IMG/VR virus record: IMGVR_UViG_3300014205_000174
Length of the DNA stretch: 64,000 nt
Strand: one strand, 5' to 3'
DNA from: a virus
Lineage: Duplodnaviria > Caudoviricetes
Shown here: positions 4,835 through 58,453 of the stretch, in pieces
Layout of the letters: the number at the start of each line of letters is the position of its first letter
How positions within the stretch are numbered: position 1 is the stretch's first letter
The notes under the pieces: model-generated
Told to the model about the DNA's origin: nothing
The model's input: the letters and a program-made list of their open reading frames with translations, nothing else
Database searches by the model: none
Program-made: the position numbers and the translations under genes

Positions 4835-7336
4835 ATGTCAGTAAAAACTTTACCAAAACCAAATAGGGGTACTGGGTACCTGGCTGGCAAGCAGAACGGC
4901 AAGACTGTTATACATACAGATGGCGACCTTGGGGGCGTACTCGTTGGTGCGCGGCACAGCGATGGCGGCATACCTGCTGTCAACGAGAGCACCAATAAGC
5001 CGCTGGAGGTGGAAAAGGGTGAGGTGAGCATTACGTCTAAGGCCGTGACCAATACTGAAGTATATAATTTTGATGGGCAAGAAATGACCGCTAAGGAAGT
5101 GCTTTCGAAAATAAATAGTGACGCCGGCGGGGTTAAGTTTAAAAAGGGCGGTACGGTTGAGCGTACCTATAGCCTGAATGGTCAGCAAATGACCGATAAG
5201 CAGATTGAGCAAAAACTGCATGGGAATAAAATTGAAGACAAAAGGGACGGGAATAAAATTTCCTACTCCGGTGGCGAAATTATAATTACCCGACCCGCTG
5301 TTATGTCTAAGGAGACCCATAATTTCTGCGGTAGTCAGCTTACGAACTTTCAAATCCTATCTAAGATTAATGTGGATAGTGGCGGCATAGCCTTTGCGGA
5401 TGACAATGCAGACGTATCAGTAAAGCCTAATGACCTGGAATATGAATTTGGTGGGAAGGTCATGAAGGGATATGAGATAGTTGAGCAATATGCATGCGGA
5501 TGTAAAATGGAAGATGGTGGTGTGGTGAATGATTATCCAACTGTAAAGTTATCAACCATCAAGAAGCTGCAATGGTATGTGCGTCCTGACGGCAAGACAG
5601 AGTTACAGGCGGAAATTAATGGGGAGCATAAAAAAGCCGTATTTGATGATGCCGATAATAAAATAGGCTATTATGGTTTATGTAATACTGCGGACAATGC
5701 ACTTAAGTTACTTGAAAAGTATTTTAAGATAAAAATAAAACGCGATAAGTATCCTGGGTACTTTGATTCTGGTGGTGAAATAGCAGACACCGACTATGAA
5801 ATAATTCCCGCAGAGAATAGCGGGCGTGGCGTGACAGAAAAAGTTCGTATTACTGATGATAAAGGCAGGGTGGCCGAATATTCTATTTTCGGCGGCGATA
5901 TACCTTATGCCATACAGTGTGCGCGGCAATCATTAAAGTGGCAGCAGGAAATTGACGATATAGTTGGCCCTGAAGGGGATTTATCTGAATATGCACAGTC
6001 TATTTATGACAATGCGCTGACCAGGTATAAAAAAGCGGATGATAGAAAGAAAAAGGAACTATTGCGTAAGCTCAGGTTTAATATATCCATGATTAGGCCC
6101 GTTCTTAATTCAGTACAGGCTGGCAGTATTGAAAACATAGAATTTGTCCGCGCCGGTGAAAAATTCCTCAAAGACCACGCCCCTGATTTCATGAGACATG
6201 GTGGTGTCGCAGAAGGCGGCAGGCAGTCAAACTTTGATTTCCTCAGTGAAAAAATATCCTCTGGTGATTTAATCATTGACCGTAATGGCATAGTGAGAAC
6301 ATACGCATGGCATAGCGGTGATGGCAGGCTCGTCGTTGAATCCGATAATATACCAAGCCGCCATGGGCCAGTTACTATGTACAAAATAAAAGTAGACGGT
6401 GTTGAAAAAGAAACTACCGATGATTACGCCATGGCCCTGAATCATACGCGGGAATATTTCTTAAAGCATCAGGCTGGCTCTCACATGGAAGAAGGGGGCG
6501 TTATAGAAAGCCTTACTCCTCAGCAGCAATATGACATAGGGAATTACCTGCCAGTTAGAATAGGAGGCATAAATAATGGGTGTGCCTGGGCTGACGTATT
6601 TAATGACGAGGGCCTGCTATCTTCGGAGCCGAAGTCGCTGGATTACTATTATCAGATTGCCATTAAAATAAAACCCGGAGCGGCATACCTTGAAAGGGAG
6701 GGGTTCTGGGATGATTTCGCAGACCGCATGGAAGAGTTAGGGCGGCCGTTGTCGTATGAGCAAGGCGGTAGGCTCCAGGGTCGGGAAAATTGCACTTACG
6801 AGCAACTGGTTGCAAAATATCCAATGCGTGACGGCTATAGCATCGGCAATCTCCAGCTCGATAATGCTGCAACGGGTAAGACTACACCCTATTGCGTTGT
6901 AAATAAAAAAACCGGTGTATTAAATAAGCATGGGCGTGATGAAATGGAAGTTGTAGCATATTACCAGCAGATAGGGCAAAATACACTGCAACTATGCGAA
7001 AATCCATATGCTGCACGTAGCCAGGAGAAAGCGTTGGATAAGGACGTTATTGAAGATGTGTCCATAGAAATGGCTGATGTTAGTCAGGATAGTATGGAAG
7101 ATAATATAGCAGAATGCATAAAAAACCAGAATGCTCTTTACAAAAAAGTCAAGGCATCGAACTGGGACAGGCTTGCGAAAGCTACTTTTTATAGCATGAA
7201 ACTTACTGAAGCAAAGGCTAATTTCAGTACGTATCAAAATATAGAAGGGGAATTCATGTCGGAACTAATGAATATGTGCGATTGGTTGATGAACAAGTGG
7301 CAGAATGCGCTTGACGAGGTGCGGGTGCAAAAGTAG
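4835..7336 (+). CDS. modular polyprotein of unknown function with GG-delimited modules
   Basis: 833 aa; duplicated N-terminal unit (GE..IT..AV..E..NF.G..T..ILSKIN.D.GG); separators FKKGG, YEFGG, MEDGG, FDSGG, MRHGG, MEEGG, YEQGG. Confidence 0.75.
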   Translation: MSVKTLPKPNRGTGYLAGKQNGKTVIHTDGDLGGVLVGARHSDGGIPAVNESTNKPLEVEKGEVSITSKAVTNTEVYNFDGQEMTAKEVLSKINSDAGGVKFKKGGTVERTYSLNGQQMTDKQIEQKLHGNKIEDKRDGNKISYSGGEIIITRPAVMSKETHNFCGSQLTNFQILSKINVDSGGIAFADDNADVSVKPNDLEYEFGGKVMKGYEIVEQYACGCKMEDGGVVNDYPTVKLSTIKKLQWYVRPDGKTELQAEINGEHKKAVFDDADNKIGYYGLCNTADNALKLLEKYFKIKIKRDKYPGYFDSGGEIADTDYEIIPAENSGRGVTEKVRITDDKGRVAEYSIFGGDIPYAIQCARQSLKWQQEIDDIVGPEGDLSEYAQSIYDNALTRYKKADDRKKKELLRKLRFNISMIRPVLNSVQAGSIENIEFVRAGEKFLKDHAPDFMRHGGVAEGGRQSNFDFLSEKISSGDLIIDRNGIVRTYAWHSGDGRLVVESDNIPSRHGPVTMYKIKVDGVEKETTDDYAMALNHTREYFLKHQAGSHMEEGGVIESLTPQQQYDIGNYLPVRIGGINNGCAWADVFNDEGLLSSEPKSLDYYYQIAIKIKPGAAYLEREGFWDDFADRMEELGRPLSYEQGGRLQGRENCTYEQLVAKYPMRDGYSIGNLQLDNAATGKTTPYCVVNKKTGVLNKHGRDEMEVVAYYQQIGQNTLQLCENPYAARSQEKALDKDVIEDVSIEMADVSQDSMEDNIAECIKNQNALYKKVKASNWDRLAKATFYSMKLTEAKANFSTYQNIEGEFMSELMNMCDWLMNKWQNALDEVRVQK

Positions 7337-28408: not shown

Positions 28409-31400
28409 ATGACCACAACTATACGTACATATACCATAGCGGATTATCATAGCAACAACAGCGGACAACATTATGGTTGTTTTGATGTTGAATTGTCGTG
28501 GGATAAGAACGAGAAGTGGTGTGTGCGTGCCGGTGGGGACTTGGATAAGTATGCTCCTCTTTATAAAAATACCCATAATAGGTCTATCAAAGACGCTCTG
28601 GCGATATATAAGCGCCAGGTGGCAAAGGCAAAAAAAGATTCGGGTAAAGAAGGTGAAGAGTGGATGACGTCTCGCTATGATGAGTATGTCGAAGCTGATG
28701 CAAAAGATAATGCATCGTTAGCTGAAGGTGGTCAGGTAGGGCCTGCACCAGAGATGACCGAAGACCAGCGCATAGCATCTATTATTATTCAGCAATTGGG
28801 TGGTCGCAACAGGCTGAATATAATGACAGGTGCATATAATTTCTATGCAGTAAAAAAAGGCGTTGCTTTCAGGATTAAAAACCAGAAGGCCAACTATATA
28901 AAAATAGTATTGGAGCCCACCGACCTATATGCCATTGAGATTGGCCGCATCAGGGGCAATACATACAAGATAGTGTATGAACATAGCGGTATTTACAATG
29001 ACCAGTTAAAAGGCATCATTGAGAAGTATACCGGTATGTACCTTTCTTTGAAGGATGGGGGCAGGATAGATGTAAATGACGATGACCATAATCAGGACTT
29101 GGAGCATTTGAAAAAAGAGGCTATTGCCAATGCAAAAAGGTACGGTCGCAATAAGGCATTTGCATATCTTGTTCTTGTAGAAAAAGAATACGATGGGGTA
29201 AAGCCAACCCGTGTGGATATACAGTTAAAATCCGGGTTTGAATTAATGCCGCAATCTTATCGTGATGCTTTTGATATAATTTACGATACATCGGCTGAAA
29301 ATGAAGAAAAAAAATCGGCACCAGCGGCACCATCTTCGTCAGAATCATTTAAGCCAACGGTTGGCCAGGTATTCCACAGTAATTCAAGTGGCAAGGATTT
29401 TGAAATTACCGACATTGATGAAGATGGCTGGATAACTACTTACCAGGTAGGGAAACCACACCAGATTCAGTACATGGATAAATCAAATACACCATCCTTC
29501 CTTATGTACATGAGAAGGGGCGCGTTTGAGTTGATTAATAAAGATGCAACCCCTATCAGCGACAGTGACTACATTTGCCGCATAGGCAGTGAGATAGTAA
29601 TTAAAAAGTTAGAATACGACAGGAATGTGAAAATGAAGCTTATGCAAATAATTCCTTTGAAAGAGGGGGGCATTGAGGCTGGCATGGGTAAATACACGTA
29701 TAAATTTGTTGGTAGTAAGGACAGGGTGAAATACATTACTGAATCTGCATTGAGAGGGATGATATATGCTAATCAAATTGTTTTTATTAAACAATTAGAA
29801 GATGGCGGCCCTGTTGATATGACGGAGCGGGAGTTCCTTGATAAATATTTTGGGGTTAACGTTTTCCCCAAGGAGATTACCGACATGTTTGAAATTGAAA
29901 ATAAATCCTCATCAAATAAAGATAAAGTAGCAGCGTACATTGATGACCTAAAGCAAAGGGGTTTTACGGTAAAAAAGAAATCGTACAGTGATTTTGTTTC
30001 TATCATGGGCGCAAAAAAGAAGATGGCTGCCGGCGGCCCTGTGTCTTCCATGGACGATGAGATTTTAGATTACATCTTCCGTAATTACCCTGACAAGGAG
30101 TTTAATGACAAGGAATTCATTTCCATGATTCACGCTATATTCTCAACTAAAATAGAGAACAGCACTATTTCTGATAAAGACATTCAGGCTGCAATGAACA
30201 GGTCTCTGGTTAGTAAGGCTAAGCAATATAAAACTGAGTTCGGGAAAACCGTGCTCGGGTTTGAGTCTATTAGCGCCAAGGGCTTTGAACAATACCAAGG
30301 CTGTCCGATTATTTATTTCTCTGAGCTGGTAGATATTTCAGATAGCTTTATGACCTGCTCAGGTATCTTATTTGAAGGCGAAATCGTAAATGGCAGCGAA
30401 TGCTTTGATGATTGGTTTGCAAATGAAGAGGACGCATTAGATGTAGCCTATAAGATGGCCAATGATGTACCGGTGTACGAGGGAGGCAATGAGCCGTATG
30501 CTGATGGCGGAGAATTGGAAAGGAAAGCTGCCGCTGTAAGAAAAGCAGTAGAAATTGCAGGAATTGCTAATAGCAACAATATCCGCGCATCTAATCTGAC
30601 ATTGAAGCAGTATTCAGAAAAAATATTTGATGCGACTAAGATTGCATACCCCGTATCTGACCTTGCGCTTGCTTACGAGGCTATGAAGAGTACTGGCTAT
30701 GCGGACGGCGGCCAGGTAACTGGTGCGGCTAAGGTTTTAGTGCAGGGGTATCCGTATTTCCTTAAAAAAATAGACAGCACGCATCTGTACGTGACCAACA
30801 CGGAAAATGCTCCGGGTATGGCCTCTCATGTTGGCCAGTTCAAAGATGCAAAGGGTGACCAGGCTTTCTACAATGATATCAAGGATTGGCTTCAAGGTAA
30901 AATTGATATAGAGGGCCGGGAGTATGCGGATTTCTATGCTGATGGCGGCCAGGTTGATGGTGCCATTAAGGTTAGTATAGAAGGATATCCCTACTACCTT
31001 AAGAAAATAGACGTTACGCACCTGTTTGTATCTAATAACGAGCGCATGGAAGGCACTTGTTATCATATAGGTCAGTTCAGGACGCAAAATGGTGACCAGA
31101 CTTTCTATAATGATATCAAGGACTGGCTTAAAGGTAAAATCGATATAGCAGGAAGGGTATATGAGAAATTTTATGCTGATGGCGGTGAATTAGAAAGAAA
31201 GGCCGCCGCTATAAAAACTGCAATAGAAATAGCTGAAATTGCCAACAAAAATAATATCCGTGCATCGCACCTTACATTGAAACAGTATTCGGAGAAAATA
31301 TTTGATGCGACTAAGATTGCATACCCCATAGCAGACCTTGCGCTTGCTTATGAGGCTATGAAGAGTACGGGGTATAAGAATGGCGGAGAGCTTCCTGCCG

Positions 31401-34400
31401 GGGAATTTAAGAAAGCAGAAAAGGAGACGTTTGAAATATATGACGAAGAAAGTAAATTCGTAAGGGGCGAGAGTTTTTGGTTCGCATATAAAGAGCTTAA
31501 TGACGGGAAAGATATTCTTTGTGTTAGTTACGGTAAGAATCTACCGGATGATTCACTTCCTCCATATAGCTGTTCGGTTGATATTTGCCCACTACAGAAT
31601 ATCCTTAGTTACCAGAATGACGAAATTAAGACATTAGCTGACGCAGTTCGCCAGTTCTGGATAGAAATGATACCAACCGACAGGTTTACTATTTCTTATT
31701 TTAAAACACTGCAAGAAGCAAAGGAGTTTGCTGAAGACAAGATAAATATTAGCGAGGCGGTGGTATTAAGTAAGGAAGTAAAATGGATGAAGCCCGACAG
31801 CCTCGATTATATACTGTTTATACTCAATAATGGCTGGCTTATCAAAGGGGATTGCCAGGGTGGCGATAGTTTGTTGTTTAAGGTATACGAGCCGACTACC
31901 GGGCTTGACCAGCACGAGTCTGTTTCTGAGTTTATAATAGACGAAAAGAATACAATGATGGGCCTGGTTATCTCAAGAAAGAGTATGACAAGGCTTGAAT
32001 CTATTCCGGAAGCCTATAAGTGCATATACTCTGCTCTTCCTGAATTGAAAGAAGTGGGCAATCAAACGCCATTTGGATTATTTGTTGAGCTGAAAGATAT
32101 GTCGCCAGCTATGTTTGATGAGGCGGTAATTAATCAATACATGCTTGGCACAAAAGAGTCGTTAGACGCGAACTTCTGGTCTGATTTGGCTCATTTGTGG
32201 AAGACTAATAATCTTCGTTTTGAAAATAATAAATGGGTAAATACCGGCTTGTGGAGGACGGGTGCTTTTAAGGAAAGTAACACTAATCCTAAGACCGGTC
32301 ATGAGTTAACCGATGTTGATGTAACTGTGATATGTAGTTTAGCAAATAGCTATAACGTCACAGTGGCTGATATCAAAACAAATAATCCTGATTTCACCAC
32401 CTTTGAAATATATAACCAGAGAGGGAATAATTTCAAGGCGGGCGGGCAGATACCGGGACACTTTGCTTCCGGTAAAAATATGGAGGTGTTTGGGTATCAG
32501 ACGCAAAATTTCGATATCAGCAAGGCGCTTTGTAATCTGTTTACAGATATAATAAACAACAGCTCTCATACTGAGCAGTGGTGTATTAAGCATGCTGCCA
32601 TTGAATTTGATGATGTGCTGAGTATGGAGAAATATGTGGTTCGTACCGGTGAGGCTATACCTGGGGGCTTTAAGGAGGCTACAAAAGCTGCGCTTCTCGG
32701 CTGTAAATTATTACAAAAAGGAGGGTATGATGAAGTAGCTTCCACGACCATCATGTCCGACCATCTGCTTGAAATTGCCCGTCGCCTTCCTAAACAATAC
32801 CGTGACGGTGGGGTGGTAAAACAACATATTCTACAGATAGGCAATGATGCCGTTGCCCTTGATGCCCTGATACATGGCGATAGCCAATTGGAAGACTGGG
32901 TACAGTCAAGGATAGCCCGCGCTGCTACAGATATGGGTGATGTGGTTAACTACCTCAACTATGAGCTTGACGGTGACGGCATCGGTGGTGATGGGAAAGA
33001 ACCACATGTGGTCAAGTATATCGACCTTGATGGCTCCGATGACCAGGAGCCGAAAGAAATTATCGTTGAGGCCGTAACGCCGCATGAGGCAAGGGAGATT
33101 GTGCAGGAAGAGCTTGGCGATGACGGTATTGTTACGGGGGCGGTTCTTATCGATGATGATTACAAGGCCCCGGAAGCCGATATCCCGGCGGTAGCGGTAT
33201 CGGAGCCTGCGCCACAGGAAATGATGGCCCGTGGTGGCCTGATTGAAAAGGAAACCGACTATGCACCGTATGTCATAGCAGAAGGCGTTGCCTTTACGCT
33301 GATGGATAAGCATTTTCCAGAAAGCAGAGACCAGCAGGCTGCGGAGTATGCGGAAGAAATGGCTGATTACCTGTATAAAACGGCCCAGAAGCAGTACAAA
33401 GATTCTAATGCAACGTTAAAGCATAGTATAGGCAAGGGGTCAAACATAGGCCGTGACCGTTTTTACGGTATAATGGAGGGCTGGGGTGAGCTGTATATGC
33501 TCAAGCACCCATTCACTCCCGTTAAGGCATCTGCATCCATGGCCCGTGGCGGAATGATTGAGAAGGAGACCGGATATTTCCCGGACGCATTGGCGTCATT
33601 AGTTGCCGATGAAATTGTTGACGATAAATTCCCGGATAGCGACCCAGGGGATGCGACTGCTTATGCCGATGAAATGGCCGAACATCTTGTGACCACTGCG
33701 GAACTAATGTATAAAAACTCTAATTCTTCATTACGCAAGGCTATAGGTAGCGGTTCTGAAGAAGGCAGGGATAAGTTTGCCGCACTCATGAAGGTGTGGG
33801 CGGAGCTTTGGATGGTTGACCACCCGTTCGAGGAAACGGCGCTGGCGTATGCAAAGGGTGGCGAAGTACGCAATCTTAAGTTTGGCCGCGTGATGCATGA
33901 GTTTAAAGAAGGGAAACTAACTGACCGCTGGGGCAACAAGGTTACTGACCGTGGACAGGCCCTGGCTATTGCATATAGCTCTTCGTCTCCCAAGATGAAA
34001 GATGGCGGTGAAGTTAATGGTTGGGTCAAACAAAAGGAATGGCACGGCAATCCTTCATTAGGGTATGAAAGCTGGAAGAAGAATTTCAAAACGCCAGGCG
34101 GAAGAGCAGTGCCTGTTTATCTGTTTGGCAAAGAGGGTAAAGGCAAGAATACTATAATATATACTCAAGATGAGCAAGGTAAAACAATTCCTAGCGGGAA
34201 TACGTTTGATGCGCCCGACTGGAGTTATTGCGTATCTGCTGGGCCTAATAGCGACTATACTCATTCCGGTGGGTTTTATCCTGAGACGCCTTCATTGCAG
34301 GAGGCTATGGATAAAATAGATGCGCTGGATAAAATAAAAAGGTTAATATACGAAAGCGGCGGCACAATCGAGTTGGTGGAAAACACTTACGCTGACGGCA

Positions 34401-35224
34401 CAAGGTCATACAAGCTTGGTGACAAATACAGCGAAGACTTCGATTATGATGGGCTTATGGCCACTGGTTTATCCGCAGATGCAACATGGAGTATTGAAGA
34501 TTTAAAACTCCTGCAAAATAGTTTTACCGATGTAAATTATCATAAGGAGGCAGCATTGGTTGGTTCGGTTATAAAGGCATTGGGAAGAGGAGGGAAGCCT
34601 GCGGCAAAAGCACATATTAAATATCTTCACGAAAAGCTGATAGATAATATTACTGACGGCGCTGACGACCAATTACAGGATGGTGATGAGGTTTACGAAG
34701 TGTCATTGGAAGCTGTCCCAAATCACGACTTTGGCCCGGAAGCTCACGAGAGTTCTGTGCGTATTGCTAAGCATATGGTACCTGCAAAGAGCATAGATGA
34801 CGCTGTGCGCATAGTTCATGCGTTTTGCGTGGACAATGACCTGGGCGGCGGCAATTTTATCAATGCTAAGCTATATGTTGCTGGTGTTGAAATCGGACAT
34901 ATTTCATACAATGGGCGCGTGTGTGGCCTGAATGGTAAGCCTATGGTTTATGAAAAAGGTGGCGTATTGTCAGTAAGCAGTCTTCGTAGTAAAACAAAGG
35001 AGGAGCTTGCCCAGATGTACCAGGATAAGTTTGGACTTCCGGCTCTTCACCAAGATATAGGGACGCTGATTGCGGCATTGCACTTTGAAAAGCGCATAAA
35101 GAACCTGACTGACGCGGAGCGTGAATTTGCTGCCGATATTGAAGAAAAAATTCAGGATGCGGAGGATGCTATTGTGAAAGAGAATGGCGGGACAGTTGGC
35201 AAAACAGACAGCATCGCTACATAA
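28409..35224 (+). CDS. giant modular polyprotein (2271 aa) with at least 17 GG separators; includes a DUF6496-like module
   Basis: YADGG x4, MARGG x2, LAEGG, LKDGG, MAAGG and others; KFGRVMHEFKEGKL..KVTDRGQALAIAYS. Confidence 0.8.
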   Translation: MTTTIRTYTIADYHSNNSGQHYGCFDVELSWDKNEKWCVRAGGDLDKYAPLYKNTHNRSIKDALAIYKRQVAKAKKDSGKEGEEWMTSRYDEYVEADAKDNASLAEGGQVGPAPEMTEDQRIASIIIQQLGGRNRLNIMTGAYNFYAVKKGVAFRIKNQKANYIKIVLEPTDLYAIEIGRIRGNTYKIVYEHSGIYNDQLKGIIEKYTGMYLSLKDGGRIDVNDDDHNQDLEHLKKEAIANAKRYGRNKAFAYLVLVEKEYDGVKPTRVDIQLKSGFELMPQSYRDAFDIIYDTSAENEEKKSAPAAPSSSESFKPTVGQVFHSNSSGKDFEITDIDEDGWITTYQVGKPHQIQYMDKSNTPSFLMYMRRGAFELINKDATPISDSDYICRIGSEIVIKKLEYDRNVKMKLMQIIPLKEGGIEAGMGKYTYKFVGSKDRVKYITESALRGMIYANQIVFIKQLEDGGPVDMTEREFLDKYFGVNVFPKEITDMFEIENKSSSNKDKVAAYIDDLKQRGFTVKKKSYSDFVSIMGAKKKMAAGGPVSSMDDEILDYIFRNYPDKEFNDKEFISMIHAIFSTKIENSTISDKDIQAAMNRSLVSKAKQYKTEFGKTVLGFESISAKGFEQYQGCPIIYFSELVDISDSFMTCSGILFEGEIVNGSECFDDWFANEEDALDVAYKMANDVPVYEGGNEPYADGGELERKAAAVRKAVEIAGIANSNNIRASNLTLKQYSEKIFDATKIAYPVSDLALAYEAMKSTGYADGGQVTGAAKVLVQGYPYFLKKIDSTHLYVTNTENAPGMASHVGQFKDAKGDQAFYNDIKDWLQGKIDIEGREYADFYADGGQVDGAIKVSIEGYPYYLKKIDVTHLFVSNNERMEGTCYHIGQFRTQNGDQTFYNDIKDWLKGKIDIAGRVYEKFYADGGELERKAAAIKTAIEIAEIANKNNIRASHLTLKQYSEKIFDATKIAYPIADLALAYEAMKSTGYKNGGELPAGEFKKAEKETFEIYDEESKFVRGESFWFAYKELNDGKDILCVSYGKNLPDDSLPPYSCSVDICPLQNILSYQNDEIKTLADAVRQFWIEMIPTDRFTISYFKTLQEAKEFAEDKINISEAVVLSKEVKWMKPDSLDYILFILNNGWLIKGDCQGGDSLLFKVYEPTTGLDQHESVSEFIIDEKNTMMGLVISRKSMTRLESIPEAYKCIYSALPELKEVGNQTPFGLFVELKDMSPAMFDEAVINQYMLGTKESLDANFWSDLAHLWKTNNLRFENNKWVNTGLWRTGAFKESNTNPKTGHELTDVDVTVICSLANSYNVTVADIKTNNPDFTTFEIYNQRGNNFKAGGQIPGHFASGKNMEVFGYQTQNFDISKALCNLFTDIINNSSHTEQWCIKHAAIEFDDVLSMEKYVVRTGEAIPGGFKEATKAALLGCKLLQKGGYDEVASTTIMSDHLLEIARRLPKQYRDGGVVKQHILQIGNDAVALDALIHGDSQLEDWVQSRIARAATDMGDVVNYLNYELDGDGIGGDGKEPHVVKYIDLDGSDDQEPKEIIVEAVTPHEAREIVQEELGDDGIVTGAVLIDDDYKAPEADIPAVAVSEPAPQEMMARGGLIEKETDYAPYVIAEGVAFTLMDKHFPESRDQQAAEYAEEMADYLYKTAQKQYKDSNATLKHSIGKGSNIGRDRFYGIMEGWGELYMLKHPFTPVKASASMARGGMIEKETGYFPDALASLVADEIVDDKFPDSDPGDATAYADEMAEHLVTTAELMYKNSNSSLRKAIGSGSEEGRDKFAALMKVWAELWMVDHPFEETALAYAKGGEVRNLKFGRVMHEFKEGKLTDRWGNKVTDRGQALAIAYSSSSPKMKDGGEVNGWVKQKEWHGNPSLGYESWKKNFKTPGGRAVPVYLFGKEGKGKNTIIYTQDEQGKTIPSGNTFDAPDWSYCVSAGPNSDYTHSGGFYPETPSLQEAMDKIDALDKIKRLIYESGGTIELVENTYADGTRSYKLGDKYSEDFDYDGLMATGLSADATWSIEDLKLLQNSFTDVNYHKEAALVGSVIKALGRGGKPAAKAHIKYLHEKLIDNITDGADDQLQDGDEVYEVSLEAVPNHDFGPEAHESSVRIAKHMVPAKSIDDAVRIVHAFCVDNDLGGGNFINAKLYVAGVEIGHISYNGRVCGLNGKPMVYEKGGVLSVSSLRSKTKEELAQMYQDKFGLPALHQDIGTLIAALHFEKRIKNLTDAEREFAADIEEKIQDAEDAIVKENGGTVGKTDSIAT
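30497..31372 (+). repeat. A-B-B-A module duplication (201, 237, 237, 201 nt)
   Basis: Each unit starts at YADGG (30497, 30698, 30935, 31172); the last ends before YKNGG at 31373. Confidence 0.85.
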
Positions 35225-35294
35225 AACCTAACTAAATGTATTTATCTTTACTCAAACAATTGTATTTTTAATTCAAATAGATAAGATTCACAGA

Positions 35295-36635
35295 ATGCCA
35301 CTTTATAAGTCCAGAAAAATACGATTAGAGCCGAACAACAAGCAGCTTACGCTACTCCGTAAGCATGCAGGTTGTGCGCGGTATGCGTATAACTGGGCCA
35401 TTGCAATAAGCGAGCGGATATACGAAGAATATAAAATAACCATCACAGCCATAGACCTAAACAAAATGTTTGTGAAGATGGAGAAGTCGCAGCATAACTG
35501 GCTGTATGAAGTCAGCAAGTGCGCTACACAGCAGGCCATACGCAACTACGAGACAGCGAGAAAGAACTTCCACAGGATACAGAAAGACAGTGGGTACACT
35601 AAGAAGCGTCTGCTAAATAAACGCTCCGAAGACGGAAAGAAAGTATACATCCTTGAGGGTCTGCCGCAGAAAAAGAAAAAAAACAAGAGCCGCGATAGTT
35701 TTTACCTTGAGAATGATGGCGTAAAACCAATACAAACAAAAAAGGGGTATATTAAACTGCCAAAGATAGGTTGGGTGAGAACGTCCGAGGATATTTCACC
35801 GGAAGTGTCATTCCTTAGCTGCACCATAAGTAGGCGTGCTGATGACTGGTACGTAAGCTACAAGTACGAGTTTGAGCCTACGGAGCACAGAAACATAAGA
35901 ACTGTTGGCGTAGACCTTGGCATAAAGACACTAGCTACACTGAGCACCGGTATAACCTTTGATACCCCCAAAAGGTACAAAGAGCTTAATCGCAGACTGC
36001 GCCGCGAGCAGAAAAGCCTGTCTCGTAAGTATGAATCTTGGAAGCTGCACAAAAACGACCAGCGTCCACAGAGCCAAAATTACAAGAAGCAAAAAACCAA
36101 AATAGCAAAGTTGCATAAACGCATTGTAGACCATCGCTTAGATGGCCTGCATAAGCTCACTACCCACCTCACCAAAAACCACAGTGAGATAGTTATTGAG
36201 GATTTGAATATAAAGGGCATGTTGAGCAACCACAATCTGGCCAGAAGTATTGCCAATGGGAGTTTCCGTGAGCTGCGCCGCCAGTTGAAATACAAAGGCG
36301 ACTGGTATGGCTGTAGAATTACCGTAGCTAACAGGTTCTTCCCGAGCAGTAAGATGTGCAGTGTCTGCGAAGCAATCAACAAGACCCTTAAGTTAAAAGA
36401 CCGGGAGTGGGACTGCGAGGGTTGCGGCACCCATCACGACCGTGATAATAATGCATGCCAGACACTGGAGCAGTACCCAACTATGCATGCATATAAATAT
36501 TTGCCGGTTAGCCAAACCGGATATGCGGAGAGTTCCACCGTGAAAGCCTGTGGAGCCGGGAGTTCTGCGAGAGTTTCGCATAGCCTGGCTATTAGTACGA
36601 AGCAGGAAGTAAACACTAAAAACCCGCGTGAGTAG
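35295..36635 (+). CDS. tnpB: TnpB RNA-guided nuclease (IS607/IS605-type), no TnpA
   Basis: N-terminal RLEPNNKQ..HAGCARYAYN; RuvC GVDLGIK, IVIEDL, DRDNNA; Zn finger CSVC/CEGC. Confidence 0.92.
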   Translation: MPLYKSRKIRLEPNNKQLTLLRKHAGCARYAYNWAIAISERIYEEYKITITAIDLNKMFVKMEKSQHNWLYEVSKCATQQAIRNYETARKNFHRIQKDSGYTKKRLLNKRSEDGKKVYILEGLPQKKKKNKSRDSFYLENDGVKPIQTKKGYIKLPKIGWVRTSEDISPEVSFLSCTISRRADDWYVSYKYEFEPTEHRNIRTVGVDLGIKTLATLSTGITFDTPKRYKELNRRLRREQKSLSRKYESWKLHKNDQRPQSQNYKKQKTKIAKLHKRIVDHRLDGLHKLTTHLTKNHSEIVIEDLNIKGMLSNHNLARSIANGSFRELRRQLKYKGDWYGCRITVANRFFPSSKMCSVCEAINKTLKLKDREWDCEGCGTHHDRDNNACQTLEQYPTMHAYKYLPVSQTGYAESSTVKACGAGSSARVSHSLAISTKQEVNTKNPRE

Positions 36636-36657
36636 GTTTAGGTAAGTTTTACAGAAC

Positions 36658-36797
36658 GGCAAGAAAGCAATACTTGTTGCTTCAGGCTTATTGTTCGGGG
36701 CCATAGGCCTTGTGCTATTACTGATGTGGAGCGTGAATTAGCGGAGCATGTTGAAGGTGAGATTCAGAAATCTGAAGATGCGTGTATAGGCAGTTGA
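36658..36797 (+). pseudogene. two diverged gene fragments at the TnpB guide position
   Basis: 36658-36720 matches 36886-36948 (20/21 aa, 48/63 nt); 36720-36782 matches 35108-35170 (12/21 aa). Confidence 0.85.
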
Positions 36798-36834
36798 TAA
36801 AAAATATTAGTTACGCAAAACTGAAAAATAATTT

Positions 36835-37023
36835 ATGCAACCAGAACTAATCGAAAAGATAAAAGACATAGACCTTAGTAAGGTAGGCAAAAAAGCAATA
36901 CTTGTCGTTTCTGGGCTGCTCTTTGGCGCGATAGGCCTTGTGCTGCTGAATAAATTCGTAGAGGATAACTTTGATTTCCGAGTGGACAGAATTTCCAACA
37001 AGCCACCAAACGATAAGAAATAA
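36835..37023 (+). CDS. small single-TM protein
   Basis: KKAILVVSGLLFGAIGLVLLNK. Confidence 0.7.
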   Translation: MQPELIEKIKDIDLSKVGKKAILVVSGLLFGAIGLVLLNKFVEDNFDFRVDRISNKPPNDKK

Positions 37024-37065
37024 AACTTAGTTTTTAATTTTATAAACAAACCAAAAACAAACCAC

Positions 37066-37686
37066 ATGTACAAGTACGAACTAAAATTACAAGAAGTGGG
37101 CATGCAGGTTACAGACCTTAGTAAGGGCATGCAGGATAAGATAAAGAAATTCCTTAAGGGGGTTGCCGCCGCTGATAAGATGAGGGAAAGGCTGAAAGGA
37201 AATATTACCCAGGCGACCAGGGAAAGTATTGAAGCGGAGTTGGCTGATATGGACATTGATGCTGGCGATATGAAGCTGGTAAAGGGCATTGAAGACGGTA
37301 TAAAAAATAAAGACAAGTACGATGCCCTTGCTGCTAATTTGCAGAAGAAAAGGCTAGAGAAAGGGATGTCTGGCTCAAAGCCGCCGGCAGCGACACCAAT
37401 ACCTATTCCGCCAGCAACAAATCCAGCACCACAACCAATACCTATTCCGCCAGCAACGAGTCCAGCACCACAACCAACGCCAGCCTCGGTTGCTCCGGCT
37501 CCCGTTGCTCAAGTACCAACCACGCCACCCGCCTCAACTCCTTCTCCTGCTCCGGCAGATAAAGGCAAGGAAGAAGAGGTAGCTAAAGATGGGAGTAGTA
37601 ATGTCAGTGGCTGGGCCTTTGCAGGAATAGTGGTATTGTCGCTACTTGGGCTTGGGGCCTGGGCAAAAAAAACGGGCAGGATATAG
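37066..37686 (+). CDS. helical protein with a Pro-rich linker and C-terminal TM anchor
   Basis: 39-nt tandem duplication at 37395-37472; GWAFAGIVVLSLLGLGAWAKK. Confidence 0.75.
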   Translation: MYKYELKLQEVGMQVTDLSKGMQDKIKKFLKGVAAADKMRERLKGNITQATRESIEAELADMDIDAGDMKLVKGIEDGIKNKDKYDALAANLQKKRLEKGMSGSKPPAATPIPIPPATNPAPQPIPIPPATSPAPQPTPASVAPAPVAQVPTTPPASTPSPAPADKGKEEEVAKDGSSNVSGWAFAGIVVLSLLGLGAWAKKTGRI

Positions 37687-37723
37687 GGCATTGTATTTTT
37701 TAAATCGTAAATTTGATTAAGCA

Positions 37724-37936
37724 ATGAGTTACTTGAAGTATAAAAAAGAAAAGCAGCAGAAAGAGAGTAAAAAACTCGCTACCGTCGGGTTTGTAGTAGG
37801 AGCTGCCTTGGCGCTCGATGATAGCGACAGTAATTACGAAGATGTTGTAGCTGGCGGTGTGGTCGGGGTTTTGGTAGTGGGACTATTCGAATACTTATTC
37901 CCGAAAGCAAGCAGTAAAATTGCGCAAATGATATAA
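37724..37936 (+). CDS. small membrane protein
   Basis: Two Gly-rich hydrophobic segments. Confidence 0.6.
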   Translation: MSYLKYKKEKQQKESKKLATVGFVVGAALALDDSDSNYEDVVAGGVVGVLVVGLFEYLFPKASSKIAQMI

Positions 37937-37938
37937 AC

Positions 37939-38526
37939 ATGGCTAGTAAATACACAGAATCTCTGATAAGAACGTTTGTAAACCAGTACGGTGTGTCTAT
38001 AGCAAGGGCTATAGCACAGACCAACTTGTTTTTTCCTGCGGTTGTAGCCCAACTATCTGTGGAAAGCGCAAATGGTACATCTGGTCTCTCTGTGCGTGCA
38101 AATAATTTCGGTGGGATTAAGGGCAACCAGGATAATGGTATACTTATGGATACCACTGAGACGGATAAGCATATTGCGTCAAGGGCCTATTTTAGGAAAT
38201 ATGCAAACTTCGATGAGTTTATAGACCATTACGTGAGTATTCTGCGAACACCAAGGTATATAAATGGGGGAGTATTTGAAGCCACTTCCCCTGAAGACCA
38301 GATTAAGGCTATGGTTAAAGCTGGATACTCTACCATGACCCCGAACGCATATTTAAAGCAAGGAGTAAAAGACAGAATAGATGCAACCAGGGATATATAT
38401 AAAATCGGAAAAATAGGCAACATATCATCCGCCTATGCTGCTCTAGGGTTCGCCCCGCAACAGGAGGCAAATCCCGGAGCTGCCGCAGTGCCGAACTTTT
38501 TGTGGGATAATATTTTGCGTTTGTAA
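37939..38526 (+). CDS. GH73 glucosaminidase / FlgJ-like peptidoglycan hydrolase
   Basis: AQLSVESANG..NNFGGIKG..FRKYAN..PRY..AGYST. Confidence 0.85.
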   Translation: MASKYTESLIRTFVNQYGVSIARAIAQTNLFFPAVVAQLSVESANGTSGLSVRANNFGGIKGNQDNGILMDTTETDKHIASRAYFRKYANFDEFIDHYVSILRTPRYINGGVFEATSPEDQIKAMVKAGYSTMTPNAYLKQGVKDRIDATRDIYKIGKIGNISSAYAALGFAPQQEANPGAAAVPNFLWDNILRL

Positions 38527-47280: not shown

Positions 47281-48894
47281 ATGACGACCATCTTATTAAA
47301 AATAAGCAACAGCAAGGACGTAGGCCGGAGCATACTGGATATGCAGCGGAACTACTCCGGCATGTTCCGGCATATGTACAGACATGCGGAGTTGCTTAAA
47401 GATAAGGGGTTTGAGATGGAGTGCCGCAATCGTTTTGGCCTGGATAGCTGGATGTACCGGAGCTGCCTGGTAGACGTCCTTACCAAGCTGCAACAGATAA
47501 AGACCATCAACAAAAATAAGTCAGACCTGCTGGAATCGCTTGAGCAGGAATTAACCGAACTTAATGCGGCTACAGAAAAAGGCATAAAGTACCGCCGTCA
47601 CAAGTTCAGCGTTATGCGCAAGATTGCACACCTGCGGCAATCAATAGACCGGGAAGTTACCTTTGGCGGACGCCAGACACTGCGTAAGATATCTTATCTG
47701 CACAATACAACCACGCGCACAAGGAAAGAAAAAGATAAAAAGCAGCGGGACATAACCGCGTGGACTGAAAAGTATCATCAAACCAGATTGCAGCCTATAA
47801 CTATTATTGGCGAGGCCCCACAGCGCTCAAACCGAAAGTTTGACTTCGATTTCACGAACAAGCGCGTAATATACAAGCCATGCATGGGCATAAAGATACC
47901 GGTACTCTTCTACTGCTCGCAGGGCCAGTCCAGGCAACTGGAGCAACTTCAGGGCCTTATTGGCAATCTGGCAATAACCGTTCAACTTGCCGGCGATAAG
48001 CTTTACATCGTCTATGACGAAGAGAGTGTCGCGGGCTACGCCTTCAATGATAATGCCTGCTCCCGAGAAATGAGGCTGATACCAAAAGGAAGCGATAAGC
48101 AGGTGTTCAGGGACTGTAAGAAGAAGTGGCACAAAGAGCGCGAGGAGCGCATGTTATCGGGCAAGAAAGAGAGCAGGGTCATATCCTTTGACCTGAATCC
48201 GGAATATATAGGCGTGGCGGTACTGGAAAAGATAAGCGGCACCAACTACCGCATCCTCCATAAGATAGTATATAACCTTACCGGCCTAAATACCCGCATG
48301 GGGCTATCATCATCAAACCCTACGCAGGTCTACCAGAATAACAGGCGCGACCATGAGATTAAGGAAATATGGAAACAGATATTCAACATTGCCAAACACT
48401 ATAATGTAAGCGGCTGTGCATATGAAGACCTTGAATTTAAGAGCAAAGGCGTGAATGACGCCCCGAAGCAGGCCAATAGGAAAACAAAGAATATCTGGCA
48501 CAGGGAGCTTACATTAAAACTGATTACTAAACACTGCTCTGTACTGGGCATAAAAAAGATTGCGGTGAACGCATGTTACACTACGTTCATCGGTAATATC
48601 AAGCATCCTTACTTCGACCCATTAAATGCCGCTATAGAAACCGGCAGGCGGGGAATGATGCAATTTGAAGGTGGATTCTACCCATCGTTGGAGAGAACAG
48701 ACCTTGACACCATGTCCCGTTTGTTCGGGTTGGATGTTCAGGGTAAAACTATTTCTACGTGGTTGGATGCACACAAAGCTTTCAAAACTGCGCAATTGAG
48801 ATACCGCAGGGACTTGCAGCAATGTAAGTTCGAAGAAACAAATCTGTTAACTCATAAAAATCCAGTCAAACAACTGAATTTTTATACAAACTAA
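47281..48894 (+). CDS. divergent TnpB/Cas12f-like RuvC nuclease without a Zn finger
   Basis: ISFDLNPEYIG (RuvC-I), AYEDLEF (II), VNACYTTFIG, DPLNAAIETGRRG (III). Confidence 0.75.
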   Translation: MTTILLKISNSKDVGRSILDMQRNYSGMFRHMYRHAELLKDKGFEMECRNRFGLDSWMYRSCLVDVLTKLQQIKTINKNKSDLLESLEQELTELNAATEKGIKYRRHKFSVMRKIAHLRQSIDREVTFGGRQTLRKISYLHNTTTRTRKEKDKKQRDITAWTEKYHQTRLQPITIIGEAPQRSNRKFDFDFTNKRVIYKPCMGIKIPVLFYCSQGQSRQLEQLQGLIGNLAITVQLAGDKLYIVYDEESVAGYAFNDNACSREMRLIPKGSDKQVFRDCKKKWHKEREERMLSGKKESRVISFDLNPEYIGVAVLEKISGTNYRILHKIVYNLTGLNTRMGLSSSNPTQVYQNNRRDHEIKEIWKQIFNIAKHYNVSGCAYEDLEFKSKGVNDAPKQANRKTKNIWHRELTLKLITKHCSVLGIKKIAVNACYTTFIGNIKHPYFDPLNAAIETGRRGMMQFEGGFYPSLERTDLDTMSRLFGLDVQGKTISTWLDAHKAFKTAQLRYRRDLQQCKFEETNLLTHKNPVKQLNFYTN

Positions 48895-55968: not shown

Positions 55969-56730
55969 ATGAAAAAATCAATCATTTCCGATTTAGACGC
56001 ATTAAATATAACAGGGGCTAAAGATAGCCAATGGTTATATTCTCCTGGCAAAAAGGGAGTAAGGAGTGATATTGACTTTTTGAATGCAGATGGTGATGGT
56101 ACTTTCCGTTTTGATATGTACCCGAATCAGGAATCAGTAAAGGTTCACCCATTAGACATGACGCCAGGAGGCGAAGGTACTTTTCGCTTCGATTACGATA
56201 GCACCCCGGAACTTTATGACCAACATCGCGATACTGGTGGCTTTAATTTAATGGACTGGGGTAGCGAATTATTGCGTGGGAGTGACAGTAATAGCACGTC
56301 AGGTGGCGGTGGTGATTTTAATTTAATGGACTGGAGTAGCAGTTTGCTTAAGCCAGATAGTCAGCCAGGCGGATGGACTAAGCCGCCAAATGAGACAATA
56401 AATAAATTAGAGCCAGCGCCTTTAGAGAAGATGAATACCACGCCCAAGGCGCAGGGTAAAGTAGCTACATTACCTAAAACATGGATAACTGACCTGTTTA
56501 AATCAGTTGGCAATGCTGCCAGTCAGGCACTTTCGGCGGCGGCAAAAAATAGTGGTCAGTCTGCTCAAAAGCAAACACCGCAGAAGCAACAGCAAACTGC
56601 TGGTACCGCCGGTGCATCTGCGGGTGAAGCAACAAAGCCAAATACGTCGCTTATAATAGCGGTTGTGATTGGATTAGGTGTAGTAACTACCGTTGGAGTT
56701 GTGTTGTTTACTGGTTCAAAAAAGAAATAG
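55969..56730 (+). CDS. C-terminal TM protein with internal repeats
   Basis: FLNADG; GTFRFD x2; FNLMDW x2. Confidence 0.75.
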   Translation: MKKSIISDLDALNITGAKDSQWLYSPGKKGVRSDIDFLNADGDGTFRFDMYPNQESVKVHPLDMTPGGEGTFRFDYDSTPELYDQHRDTGGFNLMDWGSELLRGSDSNSTSGGGGDFNLMDWSSSLLKPDSQPGGWTKPPNETINKLEPAPLEKMNTTPKAQGKVATLPKTWITDLFKSVGNAASQALSAAAKNSGQSAQKQTPQKQQQTAGTAGASAGEATKPNTSLIIAVVIGLGVVTTVGVVLFTGSKKK

Positions 56731-56779
56731 TGAGTAACGTCATAGACGCGTAAAAAAACATTAATTTAGCTAAGCAAAA

Positions 56780-58069
56780 ATGTTAAAATCGTTCAAATAC
56801 AGGTTAGATTTAAATGAGGAACAGAAAACGTTCTTCAATAAATCATTTGGCTGCGCAAGGGTGGTGTACAACCGCTGTCTTGACCGCCGAAAGGAACTGT
56901 ATGCGGACAACAAACAGACAATAAGCGCCTACGATTTAATTAATGAAATTACGTTACTAAAAAATACAGAAACGTATTATTGGCTTTCGGAAGTTGTTGC
57001 TCAAACACTACAGTGCGCTGTAATGAATCTCGACACCGCCTATAAGCAATTCTTTAATGGTGGTTTTGGTTTTCCAAAATACAAAAGTAAGTATGCTCGT
57101 CAGAGTTGCCAGTTCCCACAAAATGTAAGAATTAATTTTGATAACAACAAGGTGTGGTTCCCGAAACTCGGCTGGACACGAACACATATCAGCCGCCAGT
57201 TTACCGGCAAGATAAAAACCACTACCGTCAGTAAAAATGCTTCCGGCTATTACTACGTGAGTATCCTTGTTGACAATTCAAAGCCATTACCCGAGAAATC
57301 ACCGGTAGCGGCAGATACGGCCATAGGTATAGATGTAGGTGTGAAAACCCTTGCTACCTTCAGCGATGGCACAAAGATGGAGAATCCCAAGTACTACGCC
57401 AAGTCGCAACAGAGACTGGCAATATTGCAAGAACGTTTAAGCCGTAAGGATAAGAACCGGTATCCAACGTCAACAACGGACAAAAGCAGTAAACGGAGAG
57501 TGAAAGCTAAAAAAGCGGTTGCGAAACAGCACCAAAAAATCGTAAATCAGCGAACCGACTACTTACATAAACAGTCCACGAGAATAATCCGTGAGAACCA
57601 AACGATTATAATCGAGGACTTGAATATAGCTGGCATGACCAGCAGGGTGAAAACAAAGAAGCAGGACGAGAATGGCGCGTATCTACCAAACGGCCAGGCT
57701 GCGAAGTCCGGACTGAACAAAGCAATACTTGACGTAGGTATAGGTCAGTTCTTTGACATGCTGGAATACAAAGCAGAATGGTACGGTAGGAACTTAATCC
57801 GTATCGGACGCTTTGAGCCCAGTAGCAAGACCTGCTCAAACTGCGGTTACGTCAATCAAGCCCTTACACTTAAAGGCAGAGAGTGGATGTGCCCTGTGTG
57901 TGGAGTAAACCACGACCGGGACATAAACGCTGCTGTCAACGTTAAGGACATGGGGCTAAAACAATACTACTCAGAAATGAGAAAGGAATTTAAATTAAAG
58001 ACAGGGGAGGGCATCCCCAGTGTGGACAGTTCGGCTATAGATGTAAAATCTGGGGCCAAAGCTGTCTAG
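56780..58069 (+). CDS. tnpB: TnpB RNA-guided nuclease (IS200/IS605 family), no TnpA
   Basis: FKYRL..FGCARVVYN; GIDVGVK, IIIEDL, DRDINAA; CSNC/CPVC. Confidence 0.93.
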   Translation: MLKSFKYRLDLNEEQKTFFNKSFGCARVVYNRCLDRRKELYADNKQTISAYDLINEITLLKNTETYYWLSEVVAQTLQCAVMNLDTAYKQFFNGGFGFPKYKSKYARQSCQFPQNVRINFDNNKVWFPKLGWTRTHISRQFTGKIKTTTVSKNASGYYYVSILVDNSKPLPEKSPVAADTAIGIDVGVKTLATFSDGTKMENPKYYAKSQQRLAILQERLSRKDKNRYPTSTTDKSSKRRVKAKKAVAKQHQKIVNQRTDYLHKQSTRIIRENQTIIIEDLNIAGMTSRVKTKKQDENGAYLPNGQAAKSGLNKAILDVGIGQFFDMLEYKAEWYGRNLIRIGRFEPSSKTCSNCGYVNQALTLKGREWMCPVCGVNHDRDINAAVNVKDMGLKQYYSEMRKEFKLKTGEGIPSVDSSAIDVKSGAKAV

Positions 58070-58142
58070 TCAGAAACAAGCGTAGGCAACTACCTTAAAG
58101 TATGACATGCCACGGCTCTGATGCGTCGCAGGCGGTATAAGA

Positions 58143-58202
58143 CTTGGCTTAGGAATACTTACTACCGTTGGTGTTGTTTTGTTTACCCGTAAAAAGAAAT
58201 AA
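58143..58202 (+). pseudogene. diverged duplicate of the 3' end of gene 55969-56730 at the TnpB guide position
   Basis: LGLGILTTVGVVLFTRKKK* versus IGLGVVTTVGVVLFTGSKKK* (56668-56730). Confidence 0.85.
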
Positions 58203-58207
58203 TTGCG

Positions 58208-58453
58208 ATGTCTCTATTGCCTAAAAACTGGTTCAATGATTTAGTGAAATCCGTTAGCGATTCGGCCTCAAAGGCAATTGAAAAAGCCGCAAACGGAAAT
58301 GAAAATCCTGAGAAGGAAGAAAAAGAAGAAACAAAAGTAGTTGTGGTAGAGAAGGAAGTAATATCAACTCCAGTAATTATTTGTACATTAGTTGGCGTTG
58401 CAATAATTGCAGGCGTAGTAGTTCACTTATTCAAGAACAAAAAAAATAATTAA
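58208..58453 (+). CDS. C-terminal TM protein
   Basis: LPKNWFNDLVKSV resembles LPKTWITDLFKSV of 55969. Confidence 0.7.
   Translation: MSLLPKNWFNDLVKSVSDSASKAIEKAANGNENPEKEEKEETKVVVVEKEVISTPVIICTLVGVAIIAGVVVHLFKNKKNN

Follow-up and report, generated by a model that had tools for sequence, protein, structure and literature searches.

The stretch of DNA analyzed here (the window) comprises 64,000 nucleotides (nt) of the Caudoviricetes record IMGVR_UViG_3300014205_000174 and is part of a 211-kb phage-like contig whose + strand carries nearly all genes. A tnpB gene lies in it between a giant open reading frame (ORF A) and a small gene (gene C), and between tnpB and gene C stand two gene fragments: C', which resembles gene C and occupies the position of the TnpB guide, and A'', which resembles the 3' end of ORF A (Table 1). 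The ORF A stop codon is separated from tnpB by 70 nt, and tnpB from the start of gene C by 199 nt. ORF A, taken for a polyprotein in an earlier note, showed no Pfam match, and its one PHROG match is of unknown function; a polyprotein nature is thus putative. Its homologs (1771 to 1942 amino acids [aa]) are conserved up to the sequence KRIKNLTD and divergent beyond it, and proteins related to its C-terminal part are 51% identical. In the window, this variable C-terminal tail ("allele 1," here A') begins with LTD at 35105 and constitutes the left flank of the tnpB element. Downstream of the locus are PHROG matches and an endolysin-type glucosaminidase.

Table 1. Features of the tnpB loci. Positions refer to the window, except for the last row, which refers to contig L049; a slash within a sequence marks a joint.
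Feature	Position	Strand	Content	Basis or remark
Giant ORF A	28409..35224	+	2271 aa	ORF list
Left end (LE)	35200..35294	+	Two degenerate subterminal repeats (AAATGTATTTAT, AATTGTATTTTT)	Boundary within 35192-35200 (GTTGG/CAAAACAGACAGC)
tnpB	35295..36635	+	446 aa, intact	Pfam, phmmer, motif alignment
omegaRNA scaffold (predicted)	36490..36659	+	Overlaps tnpB 3' end, ends AACGG	GG at 36658-36659 is the IS607 core dinucleotide
C' fragment	36658..36720	+	Codons 18-38 of a foreign gene C allele	No start codon; in frame with nothing upstream
Predicted guide	36660..36679	+	First 16-20 nt after the scaffold: CAAGAAAGCAATACTTGTTG	Placed by the conserved scaffold end
C'/A'' junction	36715..36722	+	CTATTA/CTGATG	Microhomology of at most 4 nt, no GG, no repeat
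A'' fragment	36717..36797	+	ITDVERELAEHVEGEIQKSEDACIGS, then two stops (36792-36797)	Orphan tail of another ORF A allele
Ancestral A-C intergenic spacer	36798..36834	+	37 nt	Relatives have 25-27 nt
Resident gene C	36835..37023	+	62 aa, one transmembrane helix	Directly after A in all relatives
Resident counterpart of guide	36888..36907	+	CAAAAAAGCAATACTTGTCG	Preceded by GTAGG (36883-36887)
Second tnpB	56780..58069		429 aa, three Pfam domains	Different lineage; closest homolog 65% identical (L031)
L049 locus of another phage group	6239-6425 and 7178-7504		406-aa TnpB, 137-nt scaffold

The TnpB protein contains the HTH_OrfB_IS605 (PF12323), OrfB_IS605 (PF01385), and Cas12f1-like TNB (PF07282) domains, all above the Pfam cut-offs, and phmmer related it to ISDra2 TnpB (E=4e-54) and to 8IAZ (E=2.5e-47). 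Its GVDLGIK, IEDL, and HDRDNNA motifs align with the catalytic residues D191, E278, and D361 of ISDra2 TnpB, indicating that the RuvC triad is intact. The G+C content of tnpB and its scaffold resembles that of the genome. The closest homologs are 55 to 69% identical, and every one of them is found in a phage-like contig. Two of those whose contigs were retrieved, P0003 (locus L002) and P0010 (locus L013), are directly preceded by a gene for a MerR-HTH/Resolvase serine recombinase; the window element and those at L003, L011, and L015 are solo forms without tnpA. Elements of the IS607 type are hallmarked by a terminal GG and by insertion after GG (PMC13565253). Since two relatives carry the serine recombinase, we classify the window element as a transposase-less solo cassette of the IS607 lineage. 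When TnpB, the C terminus of ORF A, and the 206-aa neighbor were each used alone to query IMG/VR, no relatives were returned; an alignment-query search of the same collection yielded 43 loci with distant relatives of the window TnpB. At one further locus, L001, an apparent remnant of a serine recombinase was noticed by eye.

The guide of a TnpB is the sequence adjoining the right end of its element (PMC8612924, PMC11061315). In an alignment of seven loci, 3' conservation ceases at AAC(G/A)G, and the sequences are unrelated from the next base onward; this point is 36659 in the window, where the 24 nt after the tnpB stop codon end in ACAGAACGG. The ending is AACGG at six of the seven loci and AACAG at L002. 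A more distantly related solo TnpB element that is present in three copies in one 184-kb IMG/VR phage contig (L032, L033, L035) gave the same end: the copies part just after GAACGG, their sharp ends being AAAGG/CT..CAGCAG and GAACGG/. These data bear out the element end that had been presumed in an earlier note made from the letters of the window, and by them the scaffold is predicted to end at 36659 and the guide position to begin at 36660. The three sharp-ended copies in a single phage genome further indicate that the element family has moved within that genome. In the seven-locus alignment of the scaffold, 42 consensus pairs were predicted, 17 of which show compensatory changes. The single-sequence fold of 36480-36700 was no more stable than shuffled sequences (z=-1.1); covariation is the sole structural support for the scaffold. 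No Rfam family, RAGATH-18 included, matched 34500-37500 at E<=1, no inverted repeats were found at the element, and the sole direct repeat within 36400-36850 is a 14-nt pair inside tnpB. Scans of the + strand from 35000 to 37200 for sigma-70 promoters and terminators found none.

The sequence at the guide position was then compared with the neighboring gene. C' encodes GKKAILVASGLLFGAIGLVLL, and the corresponding stretch of gene C (36886-36948) encodes GKKAILVVSGLLFGAIGLVLL; the two are identical at 20 of 21 aa, and their 15 nt differences consist of 14 synonymous changes and one Ala/Val replacement, exactly as the earlier note had counted. A tblastx comparison of C' against the whole window gave E=4.8e-8. 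Random single changes in this stretch are synonymous in 31% of cases, and the probability of at least 14 synonymous differences among 15 is 7e-7. Because 14 of the 15 differences are synonymous, we reasoned that C' and C diverged as working genes in two lineages; C' has barely changed since it ceased to code. These data support the view that a foreign, once functional allele of the neighboring gene occupies the guide position. Two of the differences fall within the predicted guide, namely the AAG versus AAA that had been noticed close to its start, which is at position 4, and a second one at position 19. When the window was searched for the guide 20-mer with up to three mismatches, the guide itself and resident gene C were retrieved, i.e., two matches versus 0.01 expected.

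A'' is directly fused to C', in a different reading frame. The segment 36717-36788 (ITDVERELAEHVEGEIQKSEDACI) and the ORF A tail at 35105-35176 (LTDAEREFAADIEEKIQDAEDAIV) share 12 of 24 aa and 48 of 72 nt (E=1.5e-4 to 4.8e-4), which upholds the earlier description of a direct fusion to a diverged ORF A 3' end; A'' begins at TD, where the conservation of ORF A homologs ends. In the TnpB-free relatives L004, L005, and L006, A is followed by 25 to 27 nt and then directly by the small gene, the gene order being A, a 68-aa C homolog, a 204- to 213-aa gene, a 69-aa gene, and the glucosaminidase, as it is downstream of gene C in the window. Because these relatives share the A-spacer-C order and A'' starts at the TD after which A becomes variable, the segment 36717-37023 (A'' tail, 37-nt spacer, and gene C) is read as the displaced ancestral junction of one lineage, in front of which the segment 35105-36720 (A' tail to C') has been placed. 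A simple insertion is excluded, since the A' tail and codon 18 of C' are not ancestral neighbors. By this reconstruction, the cassette sits inside a partial, hetero-allelic duplication of the A-tail/intergenic/gene-C junction. We thus consider it highly probable that the locus represents a solo IS607-lineage TnpB cassette within such a duplication, whose guide is a captured fragment of a neighboring-gene allele.

The right junction of the cassette coincides with a GG of gene C, whose resident form reads GTAGG/CAAAAAAGC at this point; this is suggestive of a recombinase-type event at the right end. The C'/A'' joint is attributed to illegitimate recombination on account of its short microhomology and of the lack of a GG or a repeat; no direct or inverted repeat was found to flank the C' and A'' fragments. 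The left flank would then be the A tail of one lineage and the right flank would start at an IS607-type GG in codon 18 of the gene C of that lineage; after 61 nt, C' would give way to sequence of a second lineage, namely its A tail, its spacer, and its intact gene C. At least two events would be required, a junction at GG on the side of the right end and an unequal crossover between diverged co-infecting genomes. They can be arranged in a path that passes through no defective intermediate. The element would have inserted at the end of A, a benign site (relatives of the element sit 0 to 25 nt before gene starts); an unequal crossover of two diverged co-infecting genomes, the order of these two steps being interchangeable, would have produced a partial tandem duplication; and the DNA separating the right end from the GG of the dead C copy would finally have been deleted. 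Equally compatible would be break repair that carried the cassette into a second lineage and left a homologous joint on one side and a microhomology joint on the other.

At the other side of the cassette, relatives share a common left end about 95 nt before tnpB or tnpA, consisting of (A/T)(A/G/T)GGG/CT.CCAACAG and two TTTAAAAGTGT.TAAA repeats. When the 64-kb window was searched with a profile of the left ends of five relatives, the top match was at 35219-35270 (window-wide E=0.53; envelope 35199-35290). By this weak match the boundary was set at GTTGG/CAAAAC (35199/35200), give or take about 8 nt. The left end would then apparently encode the last 7 to 10 codons of ORF A together with its stop codon (35192-35224), and the insertion would have replaced the extreme C terminus of the ORF A protein. 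Left flanks end in GG or GGG in the window (GTTGG or GCGGG) and in all relatives (AAGGG, GAGGG, AAGGG, TAGGG, TTGGG, and AAAGG). When these are read as the target-adjacent motif (TAM), position -3 varies among G, A, and T; reference TAMs are AGGAG or GAGGG. The 70 nt upstream of tnpB were also considered as a decayed spacer and 5' end of C, which are collinear but weakly similar (z=2.1, equaled by 21 of 500 shuffles), and the left-end reading, also weak, was preferred.

The layout is not restricted to one place in the window. The gene before the second tnpB ends in IGLGVVTTVGVVLFTGSKKK and a stop codon, its last 19 to 20 codons lying at 56668-56730, and a diverged orphan, LGLGILTTVGVVLFTRKKK plus a stop codon, is present at 58143-58202; over 15 codons, it departs from the resident copy by 5 synonymous and 3 conservative changes. 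It begins about 10 nt or less from the place where conservation with the L031 homolog ends, and GTGAT precedes the resident copy. This locus (55969-58260) has a cleaner geometry than the first one, the orphan lying directly after the conserved 3' region. Of the 26 intergenic gaps of the window, none but those at the two tnpB loci contains a non-coding orphan copy of a neighboring gene; local duplications elsewhere are either gene-internal repeats or paralogs. A 537-aa ORF at 47281-48894 has no Pfam match at E<=0.01, and the 334 nt that follow it have no diverged copy in the window. As for the genes that flank the second tnpB, both end in a transmembrane anchor and a lysine run and look like paralogous small membrane proteins, and the one after it begins with MSLLPKNWFNDLVKSVSD (58208-58261), resembling the internal VATLPKTWITDLFKSVGN (56461-56514) of the one before it.

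Among the 43 IMG/VR loci with distant TnpB relatives, a comparable arrangement was found in another phage group, several contigs of which come from sample 3300045988. The scaffold of L049 and L041, ending in ...GGATATAAACGCC, is followed by a piece from the middle of a 108-aa gene; this piece represents one allele, and 1 kb downstream lies another, intact one that mismatches the guide at 4 of its 20 positions. The guide 20-mer of L049 and L041 matches exactly the intact genes in L048, L051, L053, L060, and L070. Elsewhere in this group (L060, L070, and L047), the scaffold adjoins the 108-aa gene at other points, in L070 and L047 as a protein-free copy. The recurrence of the layout raised our estimate that it has a real function. 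Extra copies of the 137-nt scaffold without tnpB (94 to 98% identical) were noticed at 6103-6240, 6963-7099, and 7922-8058 in L050, at 7413-7549 in L070, at 10203-10339 in L046, and at 5779-5915 in L047; in L050, the three copies lie within 2 kb, with a different sequence after each. Such copies are possibly protein-free guide cassettes that are served in trans.

In known systems, TnpB cuts the site that its transposon has just vacated and so protects the transposon. At the window locus, an intact TnpB carrying the predicted guide would be expected to cleave related phages at C'-type alleles and, owing to the mismatches at seed position 4 and position 19, to spare the resident allele. If the cut rival were repaired from the genome described here, its A-C region would be converted, and long resection would copy the cassette as well, the outcome being intronless homing or marker exclusion in which specificity is carried by an RNA. 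With the IS607-type TnpB of ISFba1, whose structure is solved, a single mismatch at guide positions 1 to 13 abolishes or strongly impairs cleavage (PMC11061315). If the window TnpB behaves alike, it would cut the C' spelling and leave the resident allele intact. We infer omegaRNA expression, cleavage, immunity of the resident, and homing from the sequence, and we tentatively propose, at odds that we place just short of even, that the cassette acts against related phages in the manner of a free-standing homing endonuclease, but with an RNA as its guide. Taken as a whole, structure and homing-type role together are the best explanation of the locus, with a probability of about 0.5.

If active, the cassette would be a programmable homing endonuclease acting between virus genomes, retargeted whenever recombination places a new allele fragment beside the scaffold. 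It would link transposon guide RNAs, phage homing endonucleases, and CRISPR-like conflict between viruses, would account for the persistence of solo tnpB genes in large phages, and would give engineered rescue-type gene drives a counterpart in nature. A speculative and rather unlikely extension is that phages harbor natural transposase-less TnpB-omegaRNA cassettes of the kind "cut the rival allele, keep the resistant copy," in which the guide is captured from the sensitive allele of a conserved neighboring gene and is linked to a resident allele of different spelling, and which spread or exclude competitors in co-infection; the two in the window, from different TnpB lineages, would be examples, and the stacked fragments would be the footprint of a cassette transfer between diverged lineages.

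Several points weigh against the homing-type role. Resident gene C matches the guide at 18 of 20 positions and keeps the GG-ending GTAGG upstream, so self-cutting is possible. The presumed cut site is 230 nt away from the cassette, on its right, and the two are separated by resident homology; therefore, most repairs would convert gene C without copying tnpB, a poor geometry for homing. Of the 20 guide positions, 2 differ between C' and C, a lower proportion than the 13 of 41 in the rest of the fragment (Fisher p=0.11). The 3' end and the expression of the omegaRNA are predicted from the sequence, and the left-end boundary is drawn from weak similarity (E=0.53 window-wide). No orphan is present beside six closer relatives (L001, L002, L003, L011, L013, and L015), by which the layout is not a property of the clade. 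Finally, no phage with the C' allele was found in any collection searched, so that the target is hypothetical.

The search for such a phage was extended over several collections. None of the proteins in a 15-billion-protein collection is at least 90% identical to those of C, A, or the next gene, and the gene C family comprises only about ten 50% clusters. A degenerate peptide-coded pattern had no match in IMG/VR and JGI metagenome contigs, the exact guide 20-mer had none in viral sequences, and blastn of 33500-38500 against 50,697 phage records found nothing. The exact matches in TnpB-free relatives that the earlier note expected were thus not encountered in the collections searched. The missing target says little about nature because the phage of the window is itself a singleton in these collections. 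One metagenome match to the 20-mer (L075) was rejected: its context is unrelated to gene C, it lacks the GG, and one or two chance matches are expected at that collection size.

The earlier note had also proposed that the guide targets the allele of a related virus and that the resident gene escapes by recoding. The foreign allele stands, differing from the resident at positions 4 and 19. Recoding to escape is not indicated because the differences are not concentrated in the guide, and they amount to ordinary synonymous divergence; protection of the resident, if real, would be a by-product of allelic divergence.

The strongest rival explanation retains the same anatomy and denies it any use. 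The locus would be an inert rearrangement scar, in which the guide resembles gene C incidentally and TnpB does nothing or just maintains its own insertion. An IS607-type element would have landed at the end of A, a benign, intergenic-type site as in its relatives, and an unequal crossover of two phage lineages would have produced a harmless partial duplication. A serine recombinase provided in trans would then have deleted the DNA between the right end and the next GG, and with it the spacer and the first 17 codons of the dead copy. All of these steps are neutral and belong to known insertion-sequence behavior, and the C'/A'' joint is a plain microhomology junction. The lack of mismatch enrichment in the guide, the poor homing geometry, and the failure to find a target-bearing relative are also in line with a scar, as are the other members of the clade, which sit 0 to 25 nt upstream of gene starts without orphans. 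Against it, tnpB and the scaffold are intact with a genome-like G+C content, and C' shows no decay since its coding ended, 14 of its 15 differences being synonymous. Orphans at both tnpB loci of the window and nowhere else in 26 intergenic gaps likewise speak against it, as does a layout that recurs in an unrelated phage group with a guide exact to intact genes of relatives. We give the scar an appreciable chance of being the correct explanation, although a minority one.

Far less probable is the proposal, also made in the earlier note, that the two fragments form a minimal spacer array recording successive retargeting; on this view, ORF A would have been targeted first and gene C next. Two foreign-allele fragments do lie head to tail after the scaffold, and the other phage group does have serial protein-free scaffolds before different allele fragments; there, however, each fragment has a scaffold of its own, and no repeat or scaffold separates C' from A''. 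The TnpB of ISFba1 cuts 16 and 22 nt from the TAM, and TnpB guides are 16 to 20 nt long (PMC11061315), whereas A'' begins 57 nt past the guide start, beyond that length. Moreover, no GG precedes the homologous point in ORF A, and A'' is collinear with the ancestral junction, which is reproduced by A'', spacer, and gene C; the array idea was therefore abandoned. A self-directed use, in which TnpB nicks, cuts, or binds its own gene C (e.g., to start recombination-dependent replication or to modulate the downstream structural/lysis block), is just as improbable: the resident site is the only near-match in the window (18/20, with the GG motif), and nuclease-dead TnpB relatives (TldR) act as RNA-guided repressors in phages (PMC13418256), but the RuvC triad is intact here, unlike that of TldR, the seed mismatch at position 4 should block R-loop formation, judging from a close structural relative, and the allelic origin of the fragment needs no such role.

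The homing-type reading was finally set beside known systems. With IS607 TnpB (ISFba1, PMC11061315; the Clostridium botulinum IStron, bioRxiv 10.1101/2023.11.20.567912), the window cassette shares the domain set, the RuvC triad, a scaffold over the tnpB 3' end, an element end in GG, a flank starting after GG, a guide from the right flank, and homologs paired with a MerR-HTH serine recombinase. It differs in having no tnpA and no match to RAGATH-18 or another Rfam family, in residing in a phage replicon, and in having flanks that are not ancestrally contiguous, so that its guide describes a neighboring gene of another lineage rather than its own empty site.

The free-standing homing endonucleases SegF, SegB, SegG, and MobE of T-even phages carry out intronless homing or localized marker exclusion (PMC13565253). 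As in those systems, the nuclease gene is flanked by conserved genes and missing from relatives, its presumed target is in an adjacent conserved gene, the resident allele is a few substitutions apart, and flanking markers of the rival would be converted with or without the nuclease gene. Unlike them, the window cassette would take its specificity from the RNA of a captured allele fragment and employ a RuvC-type TnpB instead of a GIY-YIG or HNH nuclease, and its cleavage and exclusion are computational predictions.

The IS200/IS605 TnpB proteins of ISDra2 and GstIS act in restorative homing at the empty donor joint (PMC8612924; bioRxiv 10.1101/2023.03.14.532601). An RNA-guided double-strand break beside a TAM, a flank-derived guide, and copying from an element-bearing template, the last being proposed here, would be common to both, but restorative homing hits a sister copy from which the element has just departed, whereas the target here would be a different allele in another genome. 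A 2026 review treats "non-restorative homing" between co-infecting phages as a concept only and gives no phage example (PMC13565253). No described phage case of non-restorative TnpB homing was found in the published literature that we searched. In synthetic cleave-and-rescue and home-and-rescue drives, a guide against the common allele of a needed gene is linked to a resistant, respelled copy. The arrangement in the window differs from these in being natural, arising from recombination between lineages, in having a resident copy that differs at only 2 of 20 guide positions, and in that its function is a proposed one.

A further observation concerns two of the loci that carry homologs of the window proteins. 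The phages of L001 (8001-9329) and L031 (4739-5971) are apparently related, with dCMP deaminase, DUF5131, and Glyco_transf_25 neighbors in common, and seemingly the same divergent junction of gene blocks holds a homolog of the first window TnpB in L001 and of the second in L031, in opposite orientations.

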